DNA from: Candidatus Sulfomarinibacteraceae bacterium
GTDB taxonomy: Bacteria > Acidobacteriota > Thermoanaerobaculia > Thermoanaerobaculales > Sulfomarinibacteraceae
Length of the DNA stretch: 64,000 nt
Assembly: GCA_041552055.1 (NCBI GenBank)
Contig: JBFELO010000001.1
Coordinates: forward strand, 23,099 to 87,098
Direction of reading: 5' to 3'
In this document: piece by piece, positions 11,577 to 57,338 of the stretch
How positions within the stretch are numbered: position 1 is the stretch's first letter
Layout of the letters: each line of letters starts with the position of its first letter
Made by a program: the position numbers and the translations under genes
The notes under the pieces: generated by a model
The model's database searches: none
Seen by the model: the letters and a program-made list of their open reading frames with translations, nothing else
Told to the model about the DNA's origin: nothing

Positions 11577-11678
11577 GTTTCCTCCACTTCGGGCACCAAC
11601 TCTACCGATCGCCGTCAGCGCCGGCGCAACCATAACCAATGGAATCGAAAAACGAAAGGGGCGTGCGAGGCGGCGCGG

Positions 11679-12404: not shown

Positions 12405-12470
12405 CTCCCTATCGAATGTACCATCGCCCCAGCTCGCATCATGCCTGTGGTCTCGACCCAGATTGGTGGG

Positions 12471-12546
12471 CCCGTCTCCGTCTCCGTCTCCGTCTCCGTG
12501 CCCGAATCGCCCCTCGGATCCGTCCAAAGGATCAGAGACGGAGACA
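12471..12546. repeat. CCGTCT-hexamer hairpin element (family A)
   Basis: Sequence is (ccgtct)x4 ccgtgcccgaat ... cagagacggagacag. The arms are reverse-complementary. Confidence 0.85.
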
Positions 12547-12663
12547 GATTCCTCGAGTGACGGTCCGTGATTCGCTCTTCCGCCTTGTCAGACTGCCCAG
12601 GCATGGCCCGCATTGTTCACCGAGGTCTCGTCGCCAATGTGCCGTGCGCACCGCGACGGGCGT

Positions 12664-38347: not shown

Positions 38348-39673
38348 TCAGTCACCGATTGACGGCCGCCCGTTCGGGCGGCCGTCATCGTCCTCGCGCC
38401 CGGCTTCACCGCTCGCCACGAGGGCACGCGCCCACAGCACCGGCCCCACCAGCTGATTGATGACCACCGCCGCCACCACCACCGTCGCCAGCCGTTCGCC
38501 GATACCTTCGAGTTCGCGACCGATGCGCGCGGCGAGACCCAACGACAAGCCGGCCTGGGCAACAAACCCTTGCCACGCCCACTGCACGACCGATGGACCC
38601 GCACCGGCGACCCGCGCCGGCAGTCGCGTCAGCAGCCACACCGCGGCCAGCCGCACGGCCACGTACAGTGCGGCGGGGAGCCAGACCACCGTGAACACCC
38701 CGAGGTCGAGGTCGGCGCCGACCAGCGCGAAGAACACGACGTAGATCGGCCCGGCCGACCGCTCGAGCGCATCCAGAAACGCCGCCGAAGAGCGGCCGAA
38801 GATATTTCGCACCGCGAACCCCACCGCCACGCACACCAGCAGGTGCTCCACCGGCGCCGCCCGCCCGAGCTCGAACGACACCAGGGCCAGCGCGAGCACC
38901 GCCAGCTCGAGGTGGCGGCCGACCTTGCCCAGGTAAATACCGAACACCAGCCCCAGACCGCAGCCGACCACGAGCGAGAGGATGATCTCGATCCCGACGG
39001 CTCGTACGAGCGACAGATCGAGCGGTTCGTCGCCGAGGGCCGCACGCCCCGCAGCGTAGACCCACGCGAAGAGCAGCAACACCAACACGTCCTTCAGCAC
39101 CGTCACGCCGAGCACGGTCTCGGTCAGCTCGCCGCGGGCCCGCATCTCGGTGATGACTGCAATCGTGGTCGACGGTGACACCGCTACCGCGATCACACCC
39201 AACAGCGTGGCCACGGCAACTGCCTCGGCCGCCGTCAGCGGTCCCAGAAACGGCACCGCCGCCAGTCCGAGCCACGTCGCGCCCGCCACCACGAGCCAGA
39301 TGCCCAGCACGTGCCCGAGGGTGATCGCGGCCAGCGGCCGCGCACGATCGCGGATTTTGCGCCACCGGAGCTGGGCCCCCGCGGTGAGCGCGATCAGGCC
39401 GAGCGCCAACTCCTGGAAGAGGTGCAGGAACCGGGCATCGTCGGCGGTCTCGAGCCCGAGCGCGTATGGACCCGCCAGCAGTCCGAGGACCAGGTAACCG
39501 GTGATCCTCGGCAGCCGCCACCGCGCGGCGAGCTCACCGGACAGCACGCCGCCGATGATCAGGCAGCTGAGGCTGATCAGCGCCGACCCTGCCCGATCCT
39601 CGACCACGCCCACGCCGAGCGCGCGAGCCGTCCAGCTCGTCGCGGCGAGCACAGCGAACAGGAACCACCTCAT
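38348..39673 (-). CDS. cation:proton antiporter (CPA/Na_H_Exchanger family) membrane protein
   Basis: About 12 hydrophobic segments. SPSTTIAVITEMRARGEL...LGVTVLKDVLVLLLF resembles the CPA2 core (S.T...V...L.E....G......D....). ATG at 39673 overlaps the upstream stop (ATGA). Confidence 0.7.
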   Translation of the reverse strand: MRWFLFAVLAATSWTARALGVGVVEDRAGSALISLSCLIIGGVLSGELAARWRLPRITGYLVLGLLAGPYALGLETADDARFLHLFQELALGLIALTAGAQLRWRKIRDRARPLAAITLGHVLGIWLVVAGATWLGLAAVPFLGPLTAAEAVAVATLLGVIAVAVSPSTTIAVITEMRARGELTETVLGVTVLKDVLVLLLFAWVYAAGRAALGDEPLDLSLVRAVGIEIILSLVVGCGLGLVFGIYLGKVGRHLELAVLALALVSFELGRAAPVEHLLVCVAVGFAVRNIFGRSSAAFLDALERSAGPIYVVFFALVGADLDLGVFTVVWLPAALYVAVRLAAVWLLTRLPARVAGAGPSVVQWAWQGFVAQAGLSLGLAARIGRELEGIGERLATVVVAAVVINQLVGPVLWARALVASGEAGREDDDGRPNGRPSIGD

Positions 39674-40845
39674 CCGGCCGTCCCGCCCCGAGGCCGGACC
39701 AGGTGCCGACCCATCCACCAACGTCCCACGAGTTGGTGTATCACCATCGCCGCCACCACAGCTTCGAGAACCCCTTCGCTGCCCGTCGAGAAACCGACCA
39801 ACGCGACCAACAGCCCGAGTGCCAGCTCGCCCTGCGGCAGGAGCCCGAGACCGAGCCCTGGCACCTTAACCGGCACACCGTGACGGCCCGCCCGGGCCGC
39901 CAGCACGCGACCCCCGATCAGGGCTCCCAGAACCCTCCCAACGACGATGACGGCGAAGATCTGCCACGAAAAGGCCACGCCGCTCCACGCCGCCCCGACC
40001 AACACCAGCAGTGCGATGACGAGCGGCCGTTCGAGCGAGTGTGCGACGCGCAGGATCCGGTGGGGAAATTCGGCTCGGTTGATCAGGATCGCGCCGGAAC
40101 AGGTTGCGGCGGGCAGTGCACTGACGCCGAGCAGCGCGGTCGCGCCGGCCAATCCCACCATGGTGCCGATAAGGAGGGTCACGATCTCCACCGGCTCTCG
40201 AACACCTCGCACGAGCACCAGGGACAGGTACCCGACCACGATGCCGATGCCCACCAGGTAGAGCAACAGCTGCCACTGCGACAGACCGTGGGCCACCTCG
40301 GACAACGGGCTGGCCCATACGGATGCGACACCGAAACCCGCCACCGCGGGCAGGCCGGCGAAGGCACCCACCAGCTTGAGCAGGCGGAACGCGGAGCGGT
40401 CGGCAGGCACCCGACCGCGCGCCACACCTTCGAGCGTGCTCGGGGCCGGCGCCATGGCGACCGCCGCCAGGGAGAGCGCCAGCCACGGCCGCAGGCCAAG
40501 CAGAAAGCCACACAGTGCCACTGAGGATCCGATGAGCAGTGGCACCAGCCAGCCCACCCGACGGTGCCACGGCCGCAGGTGGCGGAGCACGCGGAGCTCG
40601 ATCTGTAACCCGAACACGAGTCCGATCCACGCCAGACCGAGCAGTACCACGACCCGCAACGTCACTAGAACGTCGGCCGGAAACAGGCCGAACGCGCGAT
40701 CGCCAAGGGCAAAGCCGACGGCCAGGAACGACAACCCCTCCATCGCCGGGGCCCGCAGTCCCCGTCGTGCGAGAGCGGCCCGCAACTCGGTACCGAGCAG
40801 GGCGAAGGCGACCAGCACCAGGAACGCCACTGTTCCGCGCAGCAT
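39670..40845 (-). CDS. cation:proton antiporter-like membrane protein (divergent)
   Basis: ATG at 40845 (MLRGTVAFLVL...). Polytopic, with GLQIELRVL and PQGELALGL resembling CPA motifs. By eye, the acidic residue aligned to the KD of the neighbour is absent. The upstream part of the track ORF is translated repeat. Confidence 0.55.
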   Translation of the reverse strand: MLRGTVAFLVLVAFALLGTELRAALARRGLRAPAMEGLSFLAVGFALGDRAFGLFPADVLVTLRVVVLLGLAWIGLVFGLQIELRVLRHLRPWHRRVGWLVPLLIGSSVALCGFLLGLRPWLALSLAAVAMAPAPSTLEGVARGRVPADRSAFRLLKLVGAFAGLPAVAGFGVASVWASPLSEVAHGLSQWQLLLYLVGIGIVVGYLSLVLVRGVREPVEIVTLLIGTMVGLAGATALLGVSALPAATCSGAILINRAEFPHRILRVAHSLERPLVIALLVLVGAAWSGVAFSWQIFAVIVVGRVLGALIGGRVLAARAGRHGVPVKVPGLGLGLLPQGELALGLLVALVGFSTGSEGVLEAVVAAMVIHQLVGRWWMGRHLVRPRGGTAG

Positions 40846-40908
40846 GGTCCCAGTGTACCGGGGGCTGGCTGACGTGCCCCCCGCCCGCTCATGTGACTCG
40901 GTGGAGTA

Positions 40909-40975
40909 CCCGTCTCCGTATCCGTCTCCGTGCCCGATGCGGCAACGTTCGGACCGGATACGGAGACGAATACGG
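40909..40975. repeat. CCGTCT-hexamer hairpin element (family A)
   Basis: Positions 40911-40924 (cgtctccgtatccg) are the perfect reverse complement of 40955-40968 (cggatacggagacg). The GTGCCCGA boundary is at 40929-40936. Confidence 0.9.
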
Positions 40976-41000
40976 CCGTCAGCTCGGCTTTCGCCCCTCT

Positions 41001-41033
41001 CCGTTCCCGTTCCCGTTCCCGTTCCCGTTCCCG
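41001..41033 (-). repeat. (CCGTTC)x5 tandem hexamer, which is (GGGAAC)n on the minus strand: a canonical G-quadruplex motif
   Basis: Reads ccgttc x5 + ccg directly. The minus strand has five GGG runs separated by AAC. Confidence 0.9.
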
Positions 41034-41169
41034 AAGAGACAGTACCATCGGGATCTCGTGTACTGATCCCCCTCAAGCAAGGGAACTCTTTCGCGCTGTC
41101 GGGAGCTGCTCATCAGCTGTGGGGACAGGCAGCAGGAGACACCACGCCCGTCGTCGTGGAGACTGCTCG

Positions 41170-41502
41170 TCAGAAGTACTCGAGATCCGACAGCGGTACG
41201 AGGAACACCGCGTTGGCCGGCTCGCCCGCCGGCACCGCATCACTGCCCAGATCACGGATCGCGGCGAGTGCCTGACGGGCCTGCTCACGGTCGCCGACCA
41301 CGCACAGCACCAGGCGGCTGAAGTCGATCCCACCGGGAATCAGCGATCGCAGCCCGGCGAAGATTGGCAGATCCCGCTCCAGCAGCTCGAGGCCGGTCCG
41401 ACTCTCGACGACCACCGAGTCTGGCAGCTCGTGTTCGACCAGCACGGCAATGACCTCGTCGAGCAACTCCTCCCGGTGGAGGATCGCCACCAGGAGCTGC
41501 AC
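41170..41502 (-). CDS. small PII-like (ferredoxin-fold) signalling protein, family uncertain
   Basis: 110 aa. The pattern is beta-alpha-beta / loop / beta-alpha-beta (LLVAILHREELLDEVIAVLVEHELPDSVVVESRTG ... SRLVLCVVGDREQARQALAAIRDLG ... AVFLVPL). The GTG start lies immediately after the ptsN-like stop. Confidence 0.45.
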   Translation of the reverse strand: MQLLVAILHREELLDEVIAVLVEHELPDSVVVESRTGLELLERDLPIFAGLRSLIPGGIDFSRLVLCVVGDREQARQALAAIRDLGSDAVPAGEPANAVFLVPLSDLEYF

Positions 41503-41961
41503 CTATGCCCCCTCGAGCTCCGCGAGCACGGCCAGGAACGCATCGCCGGTCTCGGCGTGAATGAGCCTTTCGAGGGCGTCGTCACGCCGCGCGAGCCGCG
41601 CCAGGCGCGCGAGCCCCGCGAGATGATCGGCCGCGGTGTTGGCGTCCCCTATCAGGCAGAACACCAGTCGTACGGGCTGCTGGTCGAGGGCGGGGTAGTC
41701 GAGGCCGTTGGGGTGAATGGACGCCGCCATCACGAGCCGGCCGACACCCGGGACCTGCGCGTGGGGTACGGCGACGCCACCTCCGATACCGGTGGAGAGA
41801 ATCTGCTCTCTCTCGAGCAGCTTTTCCACCACCTTGGTGCCGTCGGGCACGAGCTCCAAGCGCTCGAAAACCGAGCCGAACAAGCGGAACAGCTCGTCGC
41901 GCCCGTCCACATCGGGTGCGATGAGCACCAGCTCGGGGCGTAACTTGTCAGCCAGACGCAT
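41503..41961 (-). CDS. ptsN: PTS EIIA(Ntr)-type (fructose/mannitol family EIIA) regulatory protein
   Basis: 152 aa. EREQILSTGIGGGVAVPHA contains the phosphorylatable His in the G.A.PH context. It is stand-alone, as PtsN is. Confidence 0.75.
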   Translation of the reverse strand: MRLADKLRPELVLIAPDVDGRDELFRLFGSVFERLELVPDGTKVVEKLLEREQILSTGIGGGVAVPHAQVPGVGRLVMAASIHPNGLDYPALDQQPVRLVFCLIGDANTAADHLAGLARLARLARRDDALERLIHAETGDAFLAVLAELEGA

Positions 41962-42074
41962 CGGACAGACGGTGCCTCCCGAACAGGGAGCTTAGGGTGC
42001 TCTCGGCCGACGCGCAAGAGGAAGGGCCGTCTATTCGTGACCGTTCGCCCGTTGGATGGACGCCCGACGCGTCG

Positions 42075-42518
42075 TCACAGACGGTCGACGAAGTCGCTCA
42101 GACCCGAGATCGTGAACCTCTCGCCGTTGAGGCCCTTGACGATGCACACCACGTGCAGCACCAGGATGGCGAGCAAGAGCACCGGCAACAGCAGGCCGGC
42201 CAGACAGCCGAGACCACCGCTGATCGCGCTCAGCACGAAGACTACGATCTGGAGCCCGACGATGATCGCGATCTCCGCGACCAGCAGGACCAGGCCGTGC
42301 TTGGCGTGCCATTGCACCTCGCGATCGTCCCGCTCCACCAACAGTGGGATCAGTGCCAGCAGACCCAGGTACGACAGCACGATCCAGACCGCGCGGTTGT
42401 CCGAGACCGGCCCACCCGACGGCAACGTGCCCGGTGCCTCATCCGCCGGTGGCGGTGGTGGTGGTGGCGTGGCTGGCGGCGGCTCCGGCGGACCCTGCGG
42501 GGTATCCTCGTTGGTCAT
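42075..42518 (-). CDS. small membrane protein (DUF4870-like) with Pro-rich N-terminus
   Basis: ATG at 42518. YLGLLALIPLLVERDD.EVQWHAKHGLVL and three TM segments. The upstream part of the track ORF is discarded. Confidence 0.5.
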   Translation of the reverse strand: MTNEDTPQGPPEPPPATPPPPPPPADEAPGTLPSGGPVSDNRAVWIVLSYLGLLALIPLLVERDDREVQWHAKHGLVLLVAEIAIIVGLQIVVFVLSAISGGLGCLAGLLLPVLLLAILVLHVVCIVKGLNGERFTISGLSDFVDRL

Positions 42519-42676
42519 CCTCGACCTCCCTGATCGCGGTTGGACTAAGTGTGAACTCTGGAGAATCTTACCAGAGCGGTCGTTTGTGCGGATGAATGCC
42601 ATGGTCTGCTCGGCGGTTCGACCCGACTCGAAGAAGGTCGCGATCACGGTGAAGCGTGCCCCGGGCGAGTCGGGGG

Positions 42677-42704
42677 CCTTGCACCTTGCACCGTGTACCT
42701 TGTC
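42677..42704. repeat. tandem heptamer block x4 (ccttgca ccttgca ccgtgta ccttgtc), complement orientation of the CAAGG family
   Basis: Read directly. It is followed by tcggtgggtgggg and two GCATCC/CAGCATCCAG motifs related to those at 398-410 and 550-659. Confidence 0.85.
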
Positions 42705-42807
42705 CCTCGGTGGGTGGGGCATCCGGCATCCGACTTCGCGCTGCGCTCTACGCCTTGACACGTCCAGCATCCAGCGACGAGCCACCAGAATCGGTTGGGA
42801 GGGGAGT

Positions 42808-44084: not shown

Positions 44085-45259
44085 CGCTTCCCACCCTCGA
44101 GGATCTCCGCGACCTAGGGGACGCACGGGTGCTCCTCCGGCTCGATCTCAACGTGCCGATCCTCAACGGGGTGGTCCAGGACGTCACCCGGGTCCGGGCC
44201 GCGCTGCCCACCCTTCGTTGGCTGGACGAGCGGGTCGACGTCATCGCTGCGTGCTCTCACCTCGGCAAGGCCAAGGGCGTCCCGGATCCCGCCTATTCGC
44301 TCGAGCCGGTGGCGGCAGTGCTGGAGGACGAACTCGGACGACCGGTCCAATTCATCCCCGACTGTCTGGCTCCCGAGCGCGCCACCGCCGAGCCGGGCTC
44401 GCTGCTGCTGCTCGAGAACCTCAGGTTTCACCCGGGGGAGAAGGCCAACGACGAGGAGTTCGCGCGGCAGCTCGCGGCGCCGTTCAGCCATTACGTCAAC
44501 GACGCGTTCGGGACCGCCCATCGAGCGCACGCGTCGGTGAGCGCCGCGGCGGCGATGTACGGCGTGGGCCACAAGGCGGCGGGGTTGCTCATCGAGCGCG
44601 AGATCGACGCGCTGCGGCGCCTGATCACCAACCCGGAGCAGCCGTTCGTCGCGATCGTCGGGGGGGCCAAGATCTCGACCAAGACCGCGCCGCTCGAGGC
44701 GCTCGTCGAACGAGTCCGGACGCTGCTCATCGGCGGCGGGATGGCCAACACGATGCTGCTGGCTCAGGGCTGTGGCGTGGGCAGATCGCTGGTCGAGCCA
44801 GAGATGCTCGACACCTGCCGGGCGGTGCTGGATCGAGCGGCGACGCGCGGGGTTGATCTCCAGCTGCCGCAGGACGTGGTCGTGACCGACGACCTCGACG
44901 AGCACCAGCGAGTCGAGATACGCGCGGTGGACGACATCCCCGACGACCTGATGATCGTCGATCTGGGCCCGGAGACACGCGAACGGTACACGGCGGCTCT
45001 CGCGGACGCCGCAACGGTGTTCTGGAACGGTCCGATGGGGGTGTTCGAGGTCGAGGAGTTCGCCGCGGGCACGGTCGCGATCGCCCGGGCCCTCGCCGAC
45101 ACCGACGCCTTCACGGTAGTCGGCGGCGGCGAGTCGGTGATGGCGATCCACCACGCCGGGGTGGCCGATCGGGTGAGCCACGTCTCCACCGGGGGCGGCG
45201 CCTCTCTTCAGTATCTGACCGGTGAGGAGCTCCCCGCGACGCTCGCCCTGGAGGGTTGA
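44081..45259 (+). CDS. pgk: phosphoglycerate kinase
   Basis: RLDLNVP and the GGAKISTK-type motif (GGAKISTKTAPLEAL). ATGA overlap with the gap stop. Confidence 0.95.
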   Translation: MTLPTLEDLRDLGDARVLLRLDLNVPILNGVVQDVTRVRAALPTLRWLDERVDVIAACSHLGKAKGVPDPAYSLEPVAAVLEDELGRPVQFIPDCLAPERATAEPGSLLLLENLRFHPGEKANDEEFARQLAAPFSHYVNDAFGTAHRAHASVSAAAAMYGVGHKAAGLLIEREIDALRRLITNPEQPFVAIVGGAKISTKTAPLEALVERVRTLLIGGGMANTMLLAQGCGVGRSLVEPEMLDTCRAVLDRAATRGVDLQLPQDVVVTDDLDEHQRVEIRAVDDIPDDLMIVDLGPETRERYTAALADAATVFWNGPMGVFEVEEFAAGTVAIARALADTDAFTVVGGGESVMAIHHAGVADRVSHVSTGGGASLQYLTGEELPATLALEG

Positions 45260-45263
45260 CGCG

Positions 45264-46022
45264 ATGCGCACACCGCTGATCGCAGGCAACTGGAAGATGC
45301 ACCACGGGGTGGGCGAGACCCAGATTTTCCTCGAGGCGCTGGTCAATCAGGACGTCCCTGCCACGGTCGATGTCGTGGTGTGCCCGCCCTTCGTCTCGCT
45401 GCCGGTGGCCGCGATGGTGACGACCGGTTCGGAGATTGCACTGGGAGCGCAAAACGTGCACTGGGAGTCGTCCGGTGCCTTCACCGGCGAGGTCTCGGCC
45501 GAGATGTTGATCGAGATCGGCGTTCGGTGGGCGATTGTCGGCCACAGCGAACGACGAAGCCTGTTCGGCGAAACCGACGAGAACACGATCCGGCGAGCCC
45601 GAAGCGCCCAGGACGGTGGCCTCGGTGCGATTCTGTGCATCGGAGAATCGCTGGTCCAACGGGAGGCGGAGCAGACCCTCGACGTGCTCGAACGCCAGAT
45701 CGCCGGCGTCGACCGCCTCGATCCCTCCCGCCTCGTGGTCGCCTACGAGCCCGTGTGGGCCATCGGCACCGGCCGCAACGCGACCCCGGACCAGGCCCAG
45801 GAGGTGCATGCCTTTCTTCGCCGGCGGCTGGCGGGGACCTTCGGATCGACCGAAGCCGACACGCTCAGGATCCTCTACGGTGGCAGCCTCAAGCCGAGCA
45901 ACGCCCGTGAGCTGCTCGGCCAGCAGGACGTGGATGGCGGGCTGATCGGTGGCGCAAGTCTTGACGTGGACTCGTTTTCCGCTATCATCCGCACTGCGGC
46001 CGAGTGTGCCGCTGGAGACTGA
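45264..46022 (+). CDS. tpiA: triosephosphate isomerase
   Basis: IAGNWKMH, VGHSERR, AYEPVWAIGTG and YGGS. Confidence 0.95.
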   Translation: MRTPLIAGNWKMHHGVGETQIFLEALVNQDVPATVDVVVCPPFVSLPVAAMVTTGSEIALGAQNVHWESSGAFTGEVSAEMLIEIGVRWAIVGHSERRSLFGETDENTIRRARSAQDGGLGAILCIGESLVQREAEQTLDVLERQIAGVDRLDPSRLVVAYEPVWAIGTGRNATPDQAQEVHAFLRRRLAGTFGSTEADTLRILYGGSLKPSNARELLGQQDVDGGLIGGASLDVDSFSAIIRTAAECAAGD

Positions 46023-46453: not shown

Positions 46454-46538
46454 GCCGAAGTGGCGGAATTGGTAGACGCGCACGGTTGAGGGCCGTGTGG
46501 AGCAATCCGTGCCGGTTCGAGTCCGGCCTTCGGCACCA
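46454..46538 (+). tRNA. tRNA-Leu (anticodon GAG)
   Basis: Acceptor GCCGAAG/CTTCGGC, anticodon stem CACGG/CCGTG with loop UUGAGGG, a long variable arm, and T-arm CCGGTTCGAGTCCGG. CCA is encoded. Confidence 0.9.
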
Positions 46539-49814: not shown

Positions 49815-49907
<93 letters not shown>

Positions 49908-50133: not shown

Positions 50134-50221
50134 GGAGGGATGGCCGAGAGGTCGAAGGCGGCGGTCTTGAAAACCGCTGAGGCGTCAGCCTCCGTGGGTT
50201 CGAATCCCACTCCCTCCGCCA
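50134..50221 (+). tRNA. tRNA-Ser (anticodon UGA)
   Basis: Acceptor GGAGGGA/TCCCTCC, anticodon stem GCGGT/ACCGC with loop CUUGAAA, a long variable arm, and T-arm GTGGGTTCGAATCCCAC. CCA is encoded. Confidence 0.9.
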
Positions 50222-50226
50222 CCCCG

Positions 50227-52539
50227 TCAGTTGCCCACCGGCGCCAGGCTTCCCCGGATCTCCGGCAGCGCTCCGATCCCCTTGAGCGAAATGCGGATCA
50301 ACCAGTCGCGCGTCGGGAACTGGCCGAGGCGGAGATCACGGTAGTCGATTCCGATGCTCCAGCAGCTGCCCTCCCAGTTGAGCTGGATCTGCTGCTGCTG
50401 GAAGTCGCGGTTCTCGACGTCGTACGCGACGTGCAGATTCGCGCGGAACGGGAAGCCCGGCTTGCGGAATCCGAGCACGGTCCGGACCTGGGACGACAGC
50501 CGACTGCCGTCATCGGGGTTGAAACCTTGGTACCAGGTCAGGGTGACCGACCCGTACGGGCGCCGCACCGACCCGGCGAGCGAGGTGTTGCGCAGATTGT
50601 TGCGCAAGGTGTCGTAGGAGGCCCTGGCGTCGAACCCGGTGCCCTGGGTCGGGACCAGACGCAGCAGCGCGCCGAGCGGCCCGAACTGGCTTTCTGCGTC
50701 GACGCTACGGGTGAGCGGGTCGGAGAACGAGTAGTCCTGGTACAGCTCGAACACCCCCAGCTCGCGCGCGCTCACCCCCTCCCGGGAGCGCCCCAGCAGG
50801 CGGTTGGACAGCACCATGCGGGCGCGGTTGGTGAGCACCGTGGAGTCGACCTCGTCGAACACCGGAATCTCGGTCGTGTCCTCGGTCCCCTGCAGGTAGG
50901 CGTACTCGACCCGCGGCTCGATGAGGTGCTTGAACCTCGAGTATTTCTTCGACGAGGAGTTGAACACGCGCGAGAGCGACGGGCCGACCACATCGACCCC
51001 GCCGGCGACGTAGGTGCGGTCGATCGCCTCGTCGACGAAGGAGGTCGGACTGTCGGCCTCGGTCGTCTCGTAGCGCGCCGTGTAGTAGGTAGCGCGGCCC
51101 CCGAGTCGCGGCGCCACCGACAGCCAGGGCGGGCTCGGCAGGGAGTAGGACAGGGTGGGGAAGAGGTCGGCGCGCAGGTAGTCGCCCGCGAGACCCTCTC
51201 CCCGGTCGACGTTGAAGTAGTTGACGCTCGAGATGAGGTCCCAGTAGAGCGGCGTCCGACCGATCCTGCTCGAGCGCACCCTGAGCTCCACCTCGGGGAG
51301 TTGGGCCAGCGTGACGTCCACGGTTTCGAAAACGGGCTCGAGGCATACAGGGGGACGTTCGGCGGGAAAAAGGATGTCATAGCAATATAGGGGAAGGATG
51401 CTGCATTCAGGGGGACGGTCAGCGGGATCGGGGTACGCATAGCAATTAACTCGCTTGGACAGGAACGTGGTCCGGTGATCGGCCCGCACGTTGAGCACGC
51501 CGGGGCCCCACGACCGCGTCAGGTGGAAATAGGAGTAGATGTCCCTGCGGGTGTTGGCGTTGAAATCCCGTTCGAACTCCTGGAAGAAGTCGATGTCGGA
51601 CAGGGCCTCCACCTCGGCCAGCAGGCGGAAACCGAGGAAGTCGTCCTGGTCGTGGCGGCCGTTGATCCGCCACTGCCATTCGTCGAGGTCCTTGTCGGGA
51701 TGTCGGTCCTGGATATTCGGATCCCAGATCGAGTACAGCAGCAGATTGCAGTCGTTGCACGGCACCGGCGCCCACCGCCACTCGTTGGCGAGCCCGAAGG
51801 CCCCGTCTGAGAAGTAATCGGCCCGCACGGTGGTGTCGTAGCTCCGGCCGAGGGGCACGTACACCGGCAGACCGAAGTAGGTGCCGTAGGTCTCCGAGTA
51901 GCCGAAGTTCGGCATCAGCAGGCCCGGGGACCGCTCCCGCTTGACCGGCCACACCAGGTACGGCAGGTAGAACACCGGGAACCCCTGCACCCTCATCGCG
52001 ACACTGTGAAACCGTCCGTACCCCTCCTCCTCCAGCATTGCCCTGCGGACTCCGAAACTCCACGGCGGGCTGTCGTCGTCGGAGTCGCAGGTGGTGAAGG
52101 CACCGCGGTCGATGCGGTAGTGGGTCTCGTCGAGCTTCTCCACCTCCGACCCGCTGAACGCGTACATCGGCGGCACGAACCCCTCGCCGTTGATGAACAG
52201 CCCGGTCTTGGTCCCGAGGTTGAAGTAGATCTCCTCGGCGGTGAACCTGGTCGGTCCCTGGTCGAGCACGACGTTGCCCCGCGCCACCAGGTCCTGCGTG
52301 ACCCGGTTGTACTCCATCTCCTCGCACTGGAGGCGGATGTCCTGATACAGGATCCTGACACCGCCGGTGCCGCGCCAGACGTCGCCCTCGACCTCCTGCT
52401 GCTCGGCCACGAGTGTGATGCGCTCCTCGCTGTTGTCCACCTCCTGGGCCTCCGCACACCGGGAAGCACCTGGGGCCACCAACAACAACGTCAGCGCGAT
52501 CAGCGCGGCACGGACCATGGACAACCCAACCGCTGTCAT
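50227..52539 (-). CDS. lptD: LPS-assembly outer membrane protein LptD (OstA family)
   Basis: ATG at 52539 with a signal peptide (MTAVGLSMVRAALIALTLLLVAPGASRCAEA). OstA_N pattern (..A....Y......A.GNV...QG....A) followed by a large beta-barrel-like region. The 193 aa upstream in the track ORF overlap ruvX antisense and are discarded. Confidence 0.85.
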   Translation of the reverse strand: MTAVGLSMVRAALIALTLLLVAPGASRCAEAQEVDNSEERITLVAEQQEVEGDVWRGTGGVRILYQDIRLQCEEMEYNRVTQDLVARGNVVLDQGPTRFTAEEIYFNLGTKTGLFINGEGFVPPMYAFSGSEVEKLDETHYRIDRGAFTTCDSDDDSPPWSFGVRRAMLEEEGYGRFHSVAMRVQGFPVFYLPYLVWPVKRERSPGLLMPNFGYSETYGTYFGLPVYVPLGRSYDTTVRADYFSDGAFGLANEWRWAPVPCNDCNLLLYSIWDPNIQDRHPDKDLDEWQWRINGRHDQDDFLGFRLLAEVEALSDIDFFQEFERDFNANTRRDIYSYFHLTRSWGPGVLNVRADHRTTFLSKRVNCYAYPDPADRPPECSILPLYCYDILFPAERPPVCLEPVFETVDVTLAQLPEVELRVRSSRIGRTPLYWDLISSVNYFNVDRGEGLAGDYLRADLFPTLSYSLPSPPWLSVAPRLGGRATYYTARYETTEADSPTSFVDEAIDRTYVAGGVDVVGPSLSRVFNSSSKKYSRFKHLIEPRVEYAYLQGTEDTTEIPVFDEVDSTVLTNRARMVLSNRLLGRSREGVSARELGVFELYQDYSFSDPLTRSVDAESQFGPLGALLRLVPTQGTGFDARASYDTLRNNLRNTSLAGSVRRPYGSVTLTWYQGFNPDDGSRLSSQVRTVLGFRKPGFPFRANLHVAYDVENRDFQQQQIQLNWEGSCWSIGIDYRDLRLGQFPTRDWLIRISLKGIGALPEIRGSLAPVGN

Positions 52540-52600
52540 TGTATCCCGGGTCTCGACAGCTTCCCGCCGCGCGACGGAAATTGCCGCGTACAATGATCCC

Positions 52601-53011
52601 ATGCGGTATCTCGGCGTGGACCCCGGTGGTCGGCGGGTCGGGCTGGCGGTGGGGGACGATCTGACCGGGGTCGTCACGCCGCTGGTCGTGGTCGCCTGCC
52701 GTGGTACGGCGGCCGCGGCGGAGGCCGTCCGCAGCGCGGCCCGTGCCCACGACGCAACCTGCGTGGTGGTCGGATTGCCGACGGCGGCGGACGGCACCCC
52801 GACCGCGGCGTGTCGCCGCAGCGAACTCCTCGCGACCGAGCTTCGCCAGCTTGGGTACGACGTGGTGCTCCAGCCCGAATTCCTATCCACCGACGAGGCG
52901 AAGCGGCGTGCCCGCGACCTCGGCCTCCCTGCGGACCGGCCGGTGGACCACCTCGCCGCCCAGGTGCTGCTCGAGGAGTACCTCACAACCCGATCGCGGG
53001 ACACCCCCTGA
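52601..53011 (+). CDS. ruvX: Holliday junction resolvase-like nuclease RuvX (YqgF)
   Basis: MRYLGVDPGGRRVGLAVGD is the YqgF N-terminal signature. ATG at 52601. Confidence 0.85.
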   Translation: MRYLGVDPGGRRVGLAVGDDLTGVVTPLVVVACRGTAAAAEAVRSAARAHDATCVVVGLPTAADGTPTAACRRSELLATELRQLGYDVVLQPEFLSTDEAKRRARDLGLPADRPVDHLAAQVLLEEYLTTRSRDTP

Positions 53012-53017
53012 GCCATC

Positions 53018-54019
53018 ATGGTGCGTCGTCTACTGCTCGTTTCCGCAGCGCTGACGCTGTTCGCCGTCATCGTCACGGCTGTCGCTGCCCACCGGGCGCT
53101 GTGGCGCCGGCTGGACAACCAACCCGTCTCGCTCGAGATCGAGTCGGGATCGTCGGCGCGGCAGGTTCTGGATCAACTGGCCGATCGCGGTCTGCTGCCG
53201 TCGCGGCTCGCGGGCAGGGTGTACCTCGCGGTGCGCGGCGAGCACCGGAGCGTTCACTACGGCCACTATCGGATCACCGCTCGCACGAGGCCGGTGGACG
53301 TGCTGGAACGGCTGCTCGAAGGCATCGTGGAGACGGTCAGGGTCACCGTGGTCGAGGGGCTGCTCGCCGACGACCTCGGCCCTCTGTGTGCGGCTGCCGG
53401 AGTCGGCACCGCCGATCAGTGGCAACGGGCGATCACGCGCAGCGACCTGGTACGTGACATCGCGCCGCAGGCGTCGTCACTGGAGGGATTTCTGTTCCCC
53501 GACACCTACCTGTTCGCGGTCGGGATCTCGGCCGACGAGGCCGCCGAACACATGGTGGGACGATTCCGCGAGGTGTGGCGGGAGCTGTCCGCCAACACCG
53601 ACGGCCCTGTCGAAACACCTTTCGAAACGGTCATACTCGCCTCGCTCGTTGAGGCGGAGACCTCGGTGCCGGGGGAGCGGGCGCGGGTCGCCGGGGTGTT
53701 CCAGAACCGGCTCGACCGCGGCATGCTGCTGCAGTGTGATCCGACCGTGGTCTACGCTCTCAAGAGACGCGGTGGCTGGCCGGGACGCCTGCTGCGTCGG
53801 CACTGGCTGCTGGACGACCCGTACAACACCTACCGCTACCCGGGGCTGCCGCCCGGTCCGATCAACTCTCCGGGAGGGGCAGCCCTTGCAGCTGCCCTCG
53901 AGCCGGAGTCCCACTCGTACCTGTACTTCGTCGCCCGACCCGGCGGGGGCCACACGTTCTCCCCGACCCTCGCCGAGCACAACCGGGCCGTCGCCGAGCT
54001 CCGTCGGTCCCGTCGTTGA
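53018..54019 (+). CDS. mltG: endolytic peptidoglycan transglycosylase MltG (YceG family)
   Basis: An N-terminal TM anchor, then EGFLFPDTY, ASLVEAE and NTYRYPGLPPGPI..PG motifs. Conserved ruvX-mltG order. Confidence 0.9.
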   Translation: MVRRLLLVSAALTLFAVIVTAVAAHRALWRRLDNQPVSLEIESGSSARQVLDQLADRGLLPSRLAGRVYLAVRGEHRSVHYGHYRITARTRPVDVLERLLEGIVETVRVTVVEGLLADDLGPLCAAAGVGTADQWQRAITRSDLVRDIAPQASSLEGFLFPDTYLFAVGISADEAAEHMVGRFREVWRELSANTDGPVETPFETVILASLVEAETSVPGERARVAGVFQNRLDRGMLLQCDPTVVYALKRRGGWPGRLLRRHWLLDDPYNTYRYPGLPPGPINSPGGAALAAALEPESHSYLYFVARPGGGHTFSPTLAEHNRAVAELRRSRR

Positions 54020-54050
54020 CCCTCCCAGGGGCCGGTGATAGGTTGAAAGG

Positions 54051-55961
54051 ATGGAGGGCGTGATGGCGGGGGCGCACCCGAAATTCGGCTGCTACATCCT
54101 GTTGAAGGAGTTCGCGGACGACGTACTCGGCCACCTCTACCGGACCGTCGAGCTCGACGAAGGCGGGGTTCGGCGGACGGCATTCCTGCGCATCCTGAAC
54201 GCTCCTCAGGTTCCCGCCGGAGAGGTGATCGAGGCATTCCCGCTGGCACGCCGGCTGGCCGGGAAGCTGACCGCGGCCAACGTGGCGGTCGGAACCGAGT
54301 TCGTCGCGGTGGACGGCGTGCCAGCCCTGGCGTGTGACTACTTTTCCGCCCAGCCGCTCAACGTGGTGCTTGATAGATCACGCAGCGAGGACTTCCCGGT
54401 CCCCGTGGACAACGCCCTGTTGGTGCTCGAAAAGATCTCGCTGGCACTCACGGCCGCGCTGGCCGTGGAGGTCGACGGGAGTGCGCTGGTACACGGCTTT
54501 CTCCATCCCGGGCTGATACTGCTCAGCACGGACGGCGAGGCGGTGGTTTCCGGATTCGGGCTGGCCGCCAGTCTGCTGGGGATGCTCGGCCATCACGACG
54601 TGGCACAGCAGGTGCACCCGTACCTCGCGCCCGAGGTCCTGCTGACCCGCACCCCGAGCAAACGTGGGGACGTGTACTCACTCGGGGCACTTCTGATCGA
54701 GCTGCTGACCGGCACGATGGTGCCGGCGGAGCCCGAGGAGCGGATCGGTCTGCTCGACCGCCTCGTGCTCGCCCACGACGAGCGACCGCTGCCCGATGAC
54801 CTCAAGGCGTTGCTGCGACGGGCAATCGCTCCCCGGCCCGATGACCGGTTCAGCTCTGCGGTTGACTTCAAGAAGGAGCTCGATCGGCTGCTCTACGGCG
54901 GTTCGTACAGCCCCACGACCTTCAACCTCGCGCTGTTCATGGATCGTCTGTTTCGCACCGAGTTCCAGGCCGAGGAGCGGGAGCGTGCCACCGAGGCGAC
55001 GCTGGACGTAACAGAATACCAGGCTCACGATCCCGAGCCGGAGACAGTGCCGGCGACAGCCCCCAAATCGCCTCGCCGCCGAGGCCGCGGCCTCCGGATC
55101 GGCGGCGCGATCGCACTCCTGGCGGCAGCCGTGATCGCCACCTGGTGGGCCCTGGCCGGACGAACCTCCAGCCGTCCCGAGATCCCGCCGACGCCGACCG
55201 CCGAACAGATCGCGGAGCAGCGGCGGCAGGAGGAGGATCGCCTGCAGGCAATGGTTCAGGAGCTGGTCCAGCAGAAGATGGCGGAGAAGGAAGAGGAGAT
55301 TCGCCAGGAGCTGCTCGATCGGCAGGCGAGAATCGATGATCTCCAGCGCCGACTGCGGGCATCCGAGCGGCGAGCCCGGGCAGCCCAGCCGTCGCCGGAG
55401 GAGCTCCGCCGGCAGCAGCAGTTGCAGCAACAGATCGCCGTCGAGGAGGAGGCCCAGCGCCTGCGGCAGGCAGAGCTGGGCGGGGAAGACCCCCTCGGAC
55501 CGGAGGCGGGGAGTCCGGCGACCGTGGCCCCCGATTCAGCGGCGAAATCCGACCAGCTCGAGCCGACGATCCCGGCACCCGCCCCGACGATACCCCCGAC
55601 ACCCACCGCCGGGCCGCCGCCGATCCCGACGCCGACCCGGGTGGTCGTGGTGGAGAACAGCTTCGTCGACCCGTCGGAGGTCGATACGCTGCCCGTCGTG
55701 CTCAAAGATCAACCCGTGACCTGGTCCCGCATGGCCCTCCATTCACGACGGCAGGGCGTGGTGATCGTTCAAGTGACGGTCAACGCAGATGGAGAGGTCG
55801 ACCAGGTCAAGGTGCTCCGCGCCGACCATGAGGGTTTCGGCATCCCGCAGGCCGTTGTCGACGCGGTGCGCAAGTACCGCTTCAAACCCGCCACCAAGGC
55901 GGGCGTTCGAGTCACCAGTTACGCCACCGTGACGCAGCGCTACCAGTTTCGCAGCCGCTGA
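54051..55961 (+). CDS. bitopic protein: degenerate Ser/Thr-kinase-like domain, TM helix, coiled coil/Pro-rich linker, TonB C-terminal domain
   Basis: Kinase-fold remnants are YLAPEVL, DVYSLGALLIELLTG and RPDDRFSSA. The catalytic signatures are replaced: no G-loop, no VAIK Lys, HGFLHPG in place of HRDLKP.N, and GFG in place of DFG. The TM segment is IGGAIALLAAAVIATWWALAG. The C-terminus QGVVIVQVTVNADGEVDQVKVL....GFG..QAVVDAVRKYRFKPATKAGV fits TonB_C. Confidence 0.7.
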   Translation: MEGVMAGAHPKFGCYILLKEFADDVLGHLYRTVELDEGGVRRTAFLRILNAPQVPAGEVIEAFPLARRLAGKLTAANVAVGTEFVAVDGVPALACDYFSAQPLNVVLDRSRSEDFPVPVDNALLVLEKISLALTAALAVEVDGSALVHGFLHPGLILLSTDGEAVVSGFGLAASLLGMLGHHDVAQQVHPYLAPEVLLTRTPSKRGDVYSLGALLIELLTGTMVPAEPEERIGLLDRLVLAHDERPLPDDLKALLRRAIAPRPDDRFSSAVDFKKELDRLLYGGSYSPTTFNLALFMDRLFRTEFQAEERERATEATLDVTEYQAHDPEPETVPATAPKSPRRRGRGLRIGGAIALLAAAVIATWWALAGRTSSRPEIPPTPTAEQIAEQRRQEEDRLQAMVQELVQQKMAEKEEEIRQELLDRQARIDDLQRRLRASERRARAAQPSPEELRRQQQLQQQIAVEEEAQRLRQAELGGEDPLGPEAGSPATVAPDSAAKSDQLEPTIPAPAPTIPPTPTAGPPPIPTPTRVVVVENSFVDPSEVDTLPVVLKDQPVTWSRMALHSRRQGVVIVQVTVNADGEVDQVKVLRADHEGFGIPQAVVDAVRKYRFKPATKAGVRVTSYATVTQRYQFRSR

Positions 55962-56030
55962 GCCCGCAGCAGACACCAGGCGTCATGCTGGTGCGAACCG
56001 ACCGACCGTTGCCCGCGCGTCAACTGCCCC

Positions 56031-56063
56031 CCGAAAAGGAAAAGGCCGAGCATCACGCTCGGC
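56031..56063 (-). terminator. rho-independent terminator downstream of hup
   Basis: Stem gccgagc (56045-56051) / gctcggc (56057-56063) with a 5-nt loop. On the minus strand it is followed by CUUUUCCUUUUC. Confidence 0.6.
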
Positions 56064-56145
56064 GATTCCATCCGGCGCCCGAAGGCACCGGGAATTCGCT
56101 CAGCCGACCGAGCGGCACGGGCCGCCGCCCGATCGATCGAGGAGG

Positions 56146-56439
56146 CTAGACCTCGACACGCTCCTTGAGAGTCTTGCCGGGCTTGAAGGTGACGTACTTC
56201 TTCTTCGGGATGATGATAGTGGCACCGGTCGCGGGATTGCGGCCCTGGCGCTCGCCGCGCTGCTTGGTCGCGAATGTCCCGAAACCTGGGATGGTGACCT
56301 TCTCACCGGCGTCGAGGGCGGTCGCGATGATGCCCTTCCCGGGTTGCGCCGAGAAAACCACATCCAGGATGTCGGCCGCCTTGCCCTGGCTGACGCCACT
56401 CTTCTTCGCGAGCTTCATTGCCATTTCAGTCTTGTTCAT
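56146..56439 (-). CDS. hup: HU family DNA-binding protein
   Basis: MNKTEMAMKLAKKSGVSQ...GFGTFATKQRGERQGRNPATGATIIIPKKKYVTFKPGK is a classic HU arm. Confidence 0.95.
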   Translation of the reverse strand: MNKTEMAMKLAKKSGVSQGKAADILDVVFSAQPGKGIIATALDAGEKVTIPGFGTFATKQRGERQGRNPATGATIIIPKKKYVTFKPGKTLKERVEV

Positions 56440-56579
56440 CTGGTCCTCCTGAACCCTGTGGGTTTTTTGTCATCTTGGCGGGGTAAAGCGGCTCTGTCAA
56501 GCGTTGGAGAGTGATATTTACCCCGTGCGCGCTTGTTTTTCGGGATATCGAGGTGTACCGTGAGCGTCCGGAGGTGCGA

Positions 56580-57338
56580 ATGGATCTCAGGTTGCGGGGC
56601 AAACGCGCCCTGGTCACCGGATCATCACGGGGCATCGGCCGCGCCATCGCGCTGTCGCTCGCCGACTTCAAGGTCGACGTCGCCATCAACTACCTGCGCA
56701 ACCGCACGCGCGCCGAAGAGACCGCCGACGAGATCGCTTCCCGGGGCGTTCGGAGCCTGATCATCAAGGGCAACGTGGCCAAACCAGAGCACGTGGAAAG
56801 GATCTTCGCGACCATCCGTGACCAGTGGGGCGGGCTGGAAATCGTCGTGTCGAACGCCGCGTCCGGCGTGCTGCGACCGGCGCGCGAGCTCACCCTGCAC
56901 CACTTCGACTGGGCAATGCACATCAATGCCGCGGCCCTGCTCCCGATAACCCAGAATTTCCTCAAGATGCCCGCAAACGGGGAGAAGGTGGTGGTTGCCG
57001 TCTCGTCGCTGGGGGCGGTTCGCGCGATTCCGAACTACACCGCGGTCGGCGCTTCCAAGGCGGCGTTGGAGTCGATGGTACGTCACCTCGCCGCCGAGTT
57101 CGCACCCGAGGGACTCCGCATCAACGCGGTCTCTTCCGGGACCGTCGACACCGATGCCCTGCATCACTTTCCGAACCGCGATGAACTCCTCGATCAGGCG
57201 CTCGAGCGGACTCCAGTCGGCAGGCTGTTGCACCCGCAGGACGTGGCGAACACCGTCGTCTACCTGTGTACGGAGTTCGCCTCCATGATCCATGGTCAGA
57301 TCATCGTGGTCGACGGCGGCTACTCGATCCTGGCGTAG
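56580..57338 (+). CDS. fabL: short-chain dehydrogenase, enoyl-ACP reductase FabL-like
   Basis: GKRALVTGSSRGIGRAIA, NAASG and Y....SKAALE (SDR catalytic tetrad context). The overall pattern resembles FabL. The substrate assignment is tentative. Confidence 0.6.
   Translation: MDLRLRGKRALVTGSSRGIGRAIALSLADFKVDVAINYLRNRTRAEETADEIASRGVRSLIIKGNVAKPEHVERIFATIRDQWGGLEIVVSNAASGVLRPARELTLHHFDWAMHINAAALLPITQNFLKMPANGEKVVVAVSSLGAVRAIPNYTAVGASKAALESMVRHLAAEFAPEGLRINAVSSGTVDTDALHHFPNRDELLDQALERTPVGRLLHPQDVANTVVYLCTEFASMIHGQIIVVDGGYSILA

Follow-up and report, generated by a model that had tools for sequence, protein, structure and literature searches.

The C-terminal domains of TonB proteins (TonB_C) bind a partner through strand addition to its TonB-box segment, and the transmembrane (TM) anchor of TonB has a conserved polar motif, S-H-L-S with His20, which engages ExbB/ExbD. 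TonB_C proteins of the GltJ/GltG type work with a TolQR-like motor, and Escherichia coli TolA, together with CpoB, modulates PBP1B-LpoB. TonB proteins generally have no cytoplasmic domain [PMC8262864]. In GltJ and GltG of the Myxococcus Agl-Glt system, one TM helix separates a cytoplasmic module for protein interactions from a TonB_C-like domain at the C-terminus [PMC11135422, PMC8262864]. Kinases and pseudokinases of the membrane are the other kind of protein relevant here. The MviN (MurJ) pseudokinase of Mycobacterium tuberculosis, of family ActPs3, is membrane-attached, has its three catalytic motifs degraded and its ATP site filled by aromatic residues; it scaffolds the control of peptidoglycan synthesis, and its phosphorylated tail recruits FhaA [PMC12599244]. 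YukC/EssB of type VIIb secretion is a membrane pseudokinase scaffold that serves as a non-catalytic structural hub [PMC9600267, PMC12599244], the GLW pseudokinases have three degraded motifs, a hydrophobic active site and a C-terminal TM helix [PMC12599244], and the PASTA Ser/Thr kinases control cell-wall enzymes including MltG [PMC12369325, PMC7011611]. A 2025 review distinguishes seven families of bacterial pseudokinases (ActPs1-3, GLW, CP1, DYD, DLHK), none of them from Acidobacteriota and none with a TonB_C domain, and mentions neither TonB nor Acidobacteria [PMC12599244]. The subject here is a gene whose product combines a pseudokinase with a TonB_C domain. It occupies positions 54051..55961 (+) of a stretch of 64,000 nucleotides (nt), i.e., the window, from a Candidatus Sulfomarinibacteraceae bacterium (Acidobacteriota; contig JBFELO010000001.1, positions 23,099 to 87,098). 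A literature search for the combination of a pseudokinase or Pkinase domain with TonB or TonB_C returned nothing relevant among the papers listed, and no paper that describes or interprets this architecture.

The product is a one-pass membrane protein comprising, in order, a cytoplasmic kinase fold, a pair of helices, a single TM helix, a periplasmic helical region of about 95 amino acids (aa), a Pro-rich spacer and a TonB_C domain. That this is its architecture, and that its kinase-like domain cannot transfer phosphate, to judge from motifs and fold, is very nearly certain. The open reading frame (ORF), as given in the ORF list of the window, has 636 aa and covers exactly 54051..55961. Its true start is probably the ATG at 54063, yielding 632 aa, because a GGAGGG Shine-Dalgarno sequence lies at 54054-54059, 4-9 nt 5′ of this codon, and the consensus of the family begins at M5, residue 5 of the ORF as listed (whose numbering is kept here).

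The pseudokinase domain comprises residues 10-282 (54078..54896, +), as delimited by an AlphaFold2 (AF2) model, Foldseek, alignments and motif counts in 345 sequences. At the level of sequence, the Pfam Pkinase match is weak and confined to the C-lobe (residues 147-268; 33.3 bits against a cut-off of 31.7), PK_Tyr_Ser-Thr of Pfam matches residues 94-267, and the full-length kinase families of NCBIfam give partial matches only, far below threshold. Searched on its own against the Protein Data Bank (PDB), the N-lobe (the first 160 residues) returned no kinase, only matches at the level of chance; its assignment as a kinase N-lobe therefore comes from structure prediction. In the AF2 model, built with 59 homologues, residues 10 to about 320 have a predicted local distance difference test score (pLDDT) above 90, and the strands and helices follow the order of a kinase N-lobe and C-lobe. 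Foldseek matched this model to PknA of M. tuberculosis (E 1e-14, TM-score on target 0.70), to PknI (0.77-0.78) and also to CDK2, the TM-scores on target across the three lying at 0.70-0.78. Thus, the model and its structural matches place the domain in the bilobal protein-kinase fold.

Residue correspondences were taken from HMMER alignments to StkP and PknA, and family counts from an alignment of 345 members of the superfamily; of the groups distinguished below, the present gene belongs to group A. At the Gly-loop, where PknA reads atGgmGqV, this protein reads ADDVLGHL, with D24 in place of Gly; Asp is present at this position in 305/345 and of the GxGxxG pattern only the last Gly (G27) is kept. 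The VAVK of strand β3 is AFLR here, with R47 at the position of the Lys, which is Arg in 300/345 and for which Lys is outside the six commonest residues; F45 is at the adenine-contact Ala, a position that is aromatic also in the group-A consensus (Trp). The catalytic loop HRDxKPxN (HRDLKPQN in StkP, HRDVKPGN in PknA) is HGFLHPGL (H148-G149-F150), with F150 at the catalytic Asp and L155 at the Asn: across the family, the HRD Arg position is Gly in 337/345, the Asp position is F, A, M, L, G or C in 333/345, and the Asn position is L or F in 312/345 and Asn in three. DFG has become GFG with G168 at the Asp, which is Gly in 337/345 and Asp in a single sequence. The landmarks of the C-lobe, i.e., APE (193-195), DVYSLG (207-212) and R266, have been retained, the APE Pro in 342/345, the APE Glu in 340/345 and R266 in 341/345, and the activation segment has 22 residues.

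Judged from these alignments, the domain is a kinase fold that lacks every residue needed for Mg-ATP binding and phosphate transfer. Because the replacements are near-invariant in the 345 relatives, the catalytic loss reads as ancestral to the family, old and maintained by selection; moreover, the acidic residue in the Gly-loop and the aromatic residue at the adenine contact argue against ATP binding. A first-pass annotation of the stretch, made from the letters alone, had proposed such a degenerate kinase, and all the motifs that it quoted are in the translation (YLAPEVL, DVYSLGALLIELLTG, RPDDRFSSA, TAFLRIL, HGFLHPG, GFG, and PTIPAPAPTIPPTPTAGPPPIPTP of the spacer). Its readings of HGFLHPG as a lost HRDLKP.N and of GFG as a replaced DFG agree with the alignments to StkP and PknA; a catalytic Lys, Asp or DFG, which would have spoken against it, is absent from profile and pairwise alignments alike, and the kinase fold that it expected at the N-terminus is borne out by the confident AF2 model and its Foldseek matches. 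Two of its statements need refinement: the VAIK Lys is indeed lost, but it is not simply absent, its position being held by a near-invariant Arg; and a Gly of the loop has indeed been replaced, but one glycine is kept, so that "no Gly-rich loop" overstates the change.

The most conserved segment of the protein follows directly after the kinase fold. It is the motif Y-S-P-T-T-F-N-L-A-L-F (PTTFNLA), which belongs to a pair of helices at residues 283-316 (54897..54998, +) with the signature GG-x-YSPTTFNLALFMDRLFR; AF2 predicts these with high confidence as helices 290-300 and 302-316. The mean frequency of the top residue is 0.81 in the post-kinase helices, 0.68 in the C-lobe, 0.60 in TonB_C, 0.56 in the N-lobe, 0.55 in the periplasmic helix and 0.44 in the TM helix. 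T290, F291, L293 and A294 are each found in at least 327 of the 345 sequences, which are otherwise only 30-40% identical, and the residues of TTFNLA are individually kept in 320-341 of them. Together with the conservation of APE and R266, this means that purifying selection acts on non-catalytic surfaces.

A poorly conserved linker of about 30 residues joins the post-kinase helices to the TM helix (residues 347-370; 55089..55160, +), which is rich in small residues and is the sole hydropathy peak outside the kinase core. [RK][RK]G adjoins it at the cytoplasmic end and G-R at the periplasmic end, and because basic residues precede this only TM helix, the protein is oriented N-in/C-out, with the kinase-like domain in the cytoplasm and TonB_C in the periplasm. 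The TM helix is also the least conserved segment: its columns hold A, V, G, L and I only, none is conserved at 90% or more, and the family alignment contains no conserved polar TM residue. The arrangement that defines TonB, an N-terminal TM helix with S-H-L-S/His20 and no cytoplasmic domain, is thus not the one found here. On the periplasmic side lies a long E/R/Q-rich helical region (residues 384-478; 55200..55484, +), predicted by AF2 as helices 384-444 and 449-478, with the composition Q18 E16 R16 A11. Its invariant residues are E414, E420, Q425, I428, L431 and L435, the last three of which form a partial heptad. Then follows a disordered, poorly conserved spacer rich in Pro, Ala and Thr (residues 479-535; 55485..55655, +; pLDDT <50), which has 16 Pro in 57 residues and is a Pro-rich spacer of the TonB kind. 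The TonB_C domain (residues 536-636; 55656..55958, +; pLDDT >90) is matched by Pfam PF03544 over residues 557-631 (E 1.7e-11; 44.9 bits against a cut-off of 24.6) and by TIGR01352 tonB_Cterm (42.4 bits against 27.1). In a sequence search of the PDB, 13 of the 15 matches at E up to 1 were C-terminal domains of TonB, all the significant ones included, and the best was 6fip (E 4.9e-5). The "YP" motif of TonB corresponds to W558-S559 here and to WP in the family consensus, PVTWSRMA aligning to PVYPRMA of TonB. Hydropathy, AF2 and Pfam thereby support the single TM helix, E/R/Q-rich helical region, Pro-rich spacer and good TonB_C domain that had been proposed from the letters.

All of the best 120 homologues in a collection of 5.8 billion proteins are full-length (619-659 aa, 49-100% identity) and have both Pkinase and TonB_C; the named ones among them are Thermoanaerobaculales. 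When one genome of each GTDB species was scanned, at least 174 stretches proved to encode a relative, nearly all of them titled Thermoanaerobaculia, Sulfomarinibacteraceae or Acidobacteriota. A few carry other labels (Deltaproteobacteria, Chondromyces, Methylomirabilota metagenome-assembled genomes, MAGs) and share the synteny described below; these labels are probably binning or naming errors. With residues 1-325 as query, an exhaustive phmmer search of 1.84 billion cluster representatives yielded 161 clusters (50% identity) at E <1e-30. Among the best 150 of these, the full-length proteins (about 550-780 aa) align over the entire pseudokinase and share the H-G and G substitutions and TTFNLA, most of them having a TonB_C-like C-terminus; they were sorted by motif into groups A-F. 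By name, the family is one of Acidobacteriota: mostly Thermoanaerobaculia, with some Vicinamibacteria. The first-pass annotation's own worry, that the gene is an assembly or fusion artefact, is ruled out by full-length orthologues in hundreds of independent assemblies.

Members of groups B, C and D are 30-37% identical, the named ones being "Thermoanaerobaculia" or "Acidobacteriota"; group E is Vicinamibacteria and group F has no TonB_C. A group-D member that is 32% identical (P0164) was modelled separately and has the same architecture and the same fold matches to PknA and PknI. In group D, Pfam often detects TonB_C alone, and the proteins are annotated "protein TonB"; many members carry only this label because Pfam fails to recognise their kinase fold. 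The pair of Pkinase and TonB_C is already on record in automated pipelines, under names such as "TonB family protein" or "serine/threonine-protein kinase", so that some members are annotated as kinases despite being unable to be kinases. In one sub-group of 546-590 aa (P0239, P0241, P0243, P0253, P0259, P0270), the pseudokinase is kept, with H-G at HRD and GFG, the post-kinase motif is degenerate (LALFLY-LLNP) and the C-terminus is a different one without TonB_C; the genomic context (L089, 8001-9641) is unrelated. Carriers of the gene include MAGs of Thermoanaerobaculum (L056, L061, L068). Some MAGs have two copies of the family gene (L030/L052, L022/L025, L050/L074), of which at least L050 and L052 are outside ruvX-mltG; these double copies could be paralogues or mixed bins.

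In the window, the gene is the third of a co-oriented cluster. It is preceded by ruvX, encoding a YqgF-type nuclease (52601..53011, +; Pfam RuvX E 3.4e-22; start set at the N-terminus MRYLGVDPG at 52601), and by mltG/yceG, encoding an endolytic peptidoglycan transglycosylase (53018..54019, +; Pfam YceG E 4.8e-77; TIGR00247 MltG 186 bits). The gap from ruvX to mltG is 7 nt, and that from mltG to the pseudokinase-TonB_C gene is 31 nt from the ATG at 54051, the distance given in the first-pass annotation, but 43 nt from the probable start at 54063. That annotation had correctly placed ruvX-mltG directly upstream on the same strand, as Pfam and NCBIfam show; what it had missed, apart from the PTTFNLA motif, is that this order has been kept in four deep lineages. 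The order ruvX-mltG-X is common to groups A-D, with flanks that differ by group. In group A, LptD (-) is upstream and HU (-), a short-chain dehydrogenase/reductase (+) and UvrA (-) are downstream; in group B, LptD (-) and a thiolase (-) are upstream and often an LpoB/CsgG-like lipoprotein is downstream; in group C, an E1 dehydrogenase (-) is upstream and a short-chain fatty acid transporter (-) downstream; and in group D, a T2SSE ATPase (-) is upstream and a topoisomerase IB (+) downstream. Among the species loci of group A with at least 1.3 kb of upstream sequence, MltG is encoded directly upstream in 52/71, RuvX directly upstream without MltG in 14/71 and neither in 5/71, two of these five being second copies. 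In the other groups, MltG is directly upstream in 53 of the 64 loci with enough upstream sequence. That one three-gene order recurs between four different pairs of flanks is good evidence that the transcription unit is conserved, and the gene order is moderate evidence for a functional tie to MltG.

No MotA_ExbB, ExbD or TonB-dependent-receptor domain was detected among the 38 ORFs of the window that were scanned, and in the conserved neighbourhoods of groups A-D that were examined there is no exbB/exbD, no tolQ, tolR, tolB or pal and no receptor gene; the first-pass annotation had already remarked on the lack of adjacent exbB/exbD. LptD was considered as a partner and rejected: groups A and B have a divergent lptD, groups C and D have none, and its presence is taken as lineage synteny. 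The four small genes 5′ of the Vicinamibacteria homologues were considered as exbB/exbD and gave only weak PilN and T2SSM/PilO-like matches; they are co-oriented with and precede the homologue at L088 (5618-7882) and L091 (3891-6223), and a 494-aa protein with three TonB_C repeats is encoded near the homologue in L088 (1899-3383).

Other neighbours recur or stand out in particular lineages. In group B, a gene for a lipoprotein-like protein of about 210 aa with LpoB/CsgG Pfam matches lies immediately downstream, usually convergent: at L085 (10031-10663, -), at L086 (10099-10728, +) and in about 35 of the metagenome loci L094-L173, even in some group-B loci without mltG upstream. In L093 (5369-9694), a divergent member (P0130, juxtamembrane motif SSTFDLALLM) is convergent with a gene for a class A penicillin-binding protein (PBP; Transgly and Transpeptidase), 3 nt away. 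In the Thermoanaerobaculaceae-like locus L075, the next gene in the same orientation encodes a CarboxypepD_reg domain with a TonB-dependent-receptor-like outer-membrane barrel (10156-12939, +), the only transporter neighbour seen.

The explanation that accounts best for these findings overall, with a probability of roughly 0.5, is that the protein is a non-catalytic tether or scaffold that spans the envelope and is tied to cell-envelope or peptidoglycan growth. Taken separately, a non-energised tether or scaffold is about an even proposition, and the link to peptidoglycan or MltG is rather more tentative. The protein would act without catalysis, probably as a dimer, either as an envelope-spanning tether or as a signalling scaffold. 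Its ~95 helical residues (~14 nm) and ~55 extended Pro-rich residues (up to ~15 nm) could cross the periplasm, and its TonB_C domain could then dock on a TonB-box-like strand of an outer-membrane or periplasmic partner, peptidoglycan being a second possibility; such a protein is the likeliest ligand because TonB_C domains add a strand to TonB-box segments. In the cytoplasm, the C-lobe of the pseudokinase and the PTTFNLA helices would form a docking surface for a putative partner, and because these regions evolve more slowly than TonB_C, the more specific and more important interaction is probably the cytoplasmic one. The TM helix appears to be a passive anchor rather than a rotor arm energised by ExbB/ExbD, since it is unconstrained and has no conserved polar residue. 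Thus, of the pseudokinase scaffold on a TonB-like transducer that had been proposed from the letters, the structural part stands, whereas the evidence from the TM helix speaks against the coupling to ExbB/ExbD that "transducer" implies.

Cell-envelope or peptidoglycan growth is the process most likely served, given that the gene nearly always lies next to mltG in the same orientation. The LpoB-like or class A PBP genes beside some members are a weak hint of peptidoglycan, and the same reading leans, by analogy, on the precedents of PASTA kinases with MltG and of MviN with FhaA: the protein may be the diderm, kinase-dead counterpart of the PASTA-kinase/MltG and MviN-pseudokinase/FhaA arrangements. 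Signals could pass from outside in or from inside out.

Several considerations weigh against a tether tied to peptidoglycan growth. The 14 mltG-less loci of group A form a Thermoanaerobaculaceae-like clade (38-42% identity) in which ruvX directly precedes the gene, and the Vicinamibacteria members follow four small genes in an unrelated context; because of this clade without the adjacency and of the Vicinamibacteria members elsewhere, the link to MltG is frequent and not obligatory. Furthermore, ruvX-mltG is a common pair across bacteria in general, and part of the conserved order may come from a shared promoter rather than a shared function. The cytoplasmic part of the MltG encoded in the window is about four residues, so that direct contact between the pseudokinase and MltG in the cytoplasm is unlikely, and any contact with MltG must be periplasmic or intramembrane. 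The polar-free TM helix argues against coupling to ExbBD and is yet compatible with it. Finally, the function proposed is read from architecture and gene order only.

Coupling to a motor of the ExbBD or TolQR type is the less likely alternative, and the two energised explanations, even taken together, are improbable. In one, the protein is a genuine paralogue of TonB: its TM helix couples to an ExbB/ExbD (or TolQ/TolR-like) proton motor encoded elsewhere, its TonB_C domain pulls TonB-dependent outer-membrane transporters, and the pseudokinase gates this transduction in response to a cytoplasmic signal. This would suit the bona fide TonB_C domain with its YP-like motif, whose significant matches to solved structures are all TonB, the Pro-rich spacer, the receptor-like gene that follows the member in L075, and the TolQR-like motor with which GltJ/GltG-type proteins (for background on these, see PMC11135422) are paired. 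However, the constant neighbour is mltG and not a transport gene, exbB/exbD and receptor genes are missing from the ORFs and neighbourhoods mentioned above, and the least conserved part of the protein is the very helix that would have to engage the motor, which consists of A, V, G, L and I and has no His or Ser equivalent to the S-H-L-S motif; a TonB paralogue is therefore unlikely. In the other, which is more doubtful still, the protein is a component like TolA that connects the inner membrane with Pal, TolB or lipoproteins of the outer membrane at division, with the pseudokinase as an added anchor. A long E/R/Q/A-rich helix followed by a head of the TonB_C fold does resemble domains II and III of TolA, and mltG, LpoB-like and PBP neighbours fit the modulation of PBP1B-LpoB by TolA-CpoB. 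Against this, the scan of the protein gave no match to the Pfam model of the TolA C-terminus (PF06519), no tolQ-tolR-tolA-tolB-pal cluster or adjacent member of it was present in any group A-D neighbourhood examined, and the TM helix does not have the conserved polar motif common to TolA and TonB.

The logic of a cytoplasmic regulatory module, a TM helix and a TonB_C-like domain is also that of GltJ [PMC11135422, PMC8262864], and an MglA-like GTPase is encoded with a Roadblock/MglB-like protein in the window, at 32310-33415; the protein might then be an adaptor for polarity or motility, which takes its signal from an MglA-type GTPase and engages gliding or adhesion parts of the outer membrane through TonB_C. 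The Mgl-like pair is, however, 20 kb away and belongs to none of the neighbourhoods that the family conserves, genes of the glt or agl kind were not seen, the Pfam scan found neither ZnR nor GYF, and the model of the AgmX/PglI C-terminus (NF033768) scores 22.4 bits against a cut-off of 40, so that this role is most improbable. No more plausible is an atypical active enzyme, with relocated catalytic residues or a SelO/SidJ-like activity, or, in a variant, an anti-phage kinase of the PD-T4-6 type. Invariant polar residues near the former active site (D24, R31, R47, H148, H152, D161, E163) could be taken in its favour, as could the matches of the PADLOC kinase models PD-T4-6, MkoA and mad6 (E 1e-17 to 1e-21). 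Yet almost all of the 345 members have lost the base, both metal ligands and the ATP-anchoring Lys, with a hydrophobic residue or Gly in most of these places, and the acidic Gly-loop residue and aromatic adenine-contact position disfavour the binding of a nucleotide. The PADLOC and NCBIfam matches reflect the generic kinase fold (MAD6 of MADS6, 69 bits against 460; BREX PglW, 36 against 990), and the gene is in a housekeeping operon rather than a defence island; on cut-off, catalysis and context, a kinase of a defence system such as PD-T4-6, MADS Mad6 or PglW is ruled out.

Within the preferred explanation, i.e., the non-catalytic tether or scaffold, a more elaborate device can be imagined, although it is improbable in this detail. 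The TonB_C head would sense contact or tension at the outer membrane or peptidoglycan, a dimer formed by the coiled coil and TM helix would pass this on to a pseudokinase dimer, and PTTFNLA would be a switch that tunes MltG. The switch might be phosphorylation of T289/T290 in trans by an active Hanks kinase, followed by binding of an FHA-type reader as for MviN-FhaA, and its output would be glycan-strand termination by MltG and envelope growth. If true, the protein would be a kinase-dead functional analogue of the PASTA kinases that reaches the outer membrane.

The surroundings of the gene are those of a housekeeping region, with envelope and cell-wall genes (LpxK, KdtA, a Mur ligase, DapF, GlmS), genes of translation, DNA metabolism and proteolysis (RF1, PrmC, HslUV, UvrD, RecR, DnaX) and genes of central metabolism (Tal, Tkt). 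Between the convergent pseudokinase-TonB_C and HU genes, a GC-rich, terminator-like hairpin at 56045..56063 has an 8-bp stem with six GC pairs and A/T runs on either side, the T-run being on the minus strand; it may be a bidirectional terminator. A scan for sigma-70 promoters over 52200-56600 gave no match, a negative that is uninformative for this phylum. At the other end of the cluster, a start of LptD at its signal peptide (~52539, 770 aa) leaves ~60 nt between the divergent lptD and ruvX starts, and a mechanically called ORF of 963 aa (50227-53118, -) is over-extended, running antisense through ruvX. A trio at 41170-42785 (-) that had been picked by gene sizes as exbB-exbD-exbD turned out to be the EIIA of a phosphotransferase system (PTS) and ORFs without a Pfam match. 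The Mgl-like pair at 32310-33415 (-) consists of overlapping genes for a Ras/Arf-like GTPase (194 aa; Pfam Arf E 5.7e-6) and a Roadblock/LC7 protein (174 aa), a polarity module of the MglA/MglB type that adjoins recR and dnaX. The window has three tRNA genes, tRNA-Leu(GAG) at 46454-46538 (+), tRNA-Ser(GCT) at 49816-49907 (-) and tRNA-Ser(TGA) at 50134-50221 (+); both tRNA-Ser genes are just past the lptD stop and are missing from the syntenic group-A loci listed. Five ORFs have a coding-like GC content at third codon positions and no Pfam match at the thresholds used: 21586-22656 (-), 39670-41076 (-), 41170-41502 (-), 42075-42785 (-) and 44114-45346 (-); three of them flank the PTS EIIA-2 gene (41503-41961).

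What is new here is the size and depth of the family, its universal loss of catalysis, the PTTFNLA signature, the order ruvX-mltG-X and the evidence against a classical energised TonB. Bacterial pseudokinases have barely been studied, and this is a large family with a very conserved short motif that invites mutagenesis. After GltJ, it is a second, independent case in which a sizeable cytoplasmic module is connected to a TonB_C head, which suggests that TonB_C is a reusable means of reaching the outer membrane, with uses beyond nutrient uptake. Acidobacteriota are abundant in soil and sediment and their envelope biology is experimentally largely unexplored; the position of the gene after mltG offers a testable entry point.

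The protein combines two known kinds, the membrane pseudokinase scaffold and the TonB_C tether with a cytoplasmic regulatory module. It shares with TonB a clear TonB_C domain, a Pro-rich periplasmic spacer and the form of a bitopic N-in/C-out protein of the inner membrane. It differs from TonB in the ~345 residues, including a whole kinase fold, that precede its TM helix, in the ~95-residue helix inserted before the spacer, in a TM helix without the conserved polar motif and in having no exbBD neighbours. The best precedent for cytoplasmic input into a protein that bears TonB_C is GltJ/GltG; in GltJ, however, the module is ZnR-linker-GYF, which binds MglA, MglB and AglZ, and here it is a pseudokinase, the genes are in a glt/agl context there and follow ruvX-mltG here, and the tail of the present protein is below the cut-off of the AgmX/PglI model.

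Among pseudokinases, motif comparison places the family outside those described (the GLW motif, the ActPs3 deletion, the CP1 fusion to COG3899). The GLW proteins likewise have degraded motifs and a TM helix after the kinase domain, but they are mainly proteobacterial and have G-L-W at HRD and poly-Leu/Trp at β3, whereas the present family has H-G-[FA] at HRD, W/x-L-R at β3, G-F/Q-x at DFG, PTTFNLA and TonB_C. YukC/EssB has the same bitopic plan, with a cytoplasmic pseudokinase at the N-terminus, then one TM helix and an extracytoplasmic domain at the C-terminus; it belongs to Firmicutes and the T7SSb cluster and its extracellular domain is not TonB_C, whereas there are no secretion genes near the gene described here. 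The MviN pseudokinase resembles the present one in having an important element just C-terminal to the kinase fold and an aromatic residue in the ATP pocket (F45/Trp here); it is actinobacterial, has a deletion in the activation loop as its hallmark and shares its chain with a lipid II flippase and an extracellular domain that binds carbohydrate, and phosphorylation with an FHA partner is known for MviN and only conjectured here. The closest matches in sequence and structure are the PASTA kinases (StkP, PknB, IreK), with E 1.2e-9 for StkP and the folds of PknA, PknB and Stk1, and the general plan of a cytoplasmic kinase fold, one TM helix and an extracytoplasmic binding domain is the same. The PASTA kinases are active proteins of monoderms with PASTA repeats, whereas the present protein is a dead kinase of diderm Acidobacteriota with a TonB_C domain.

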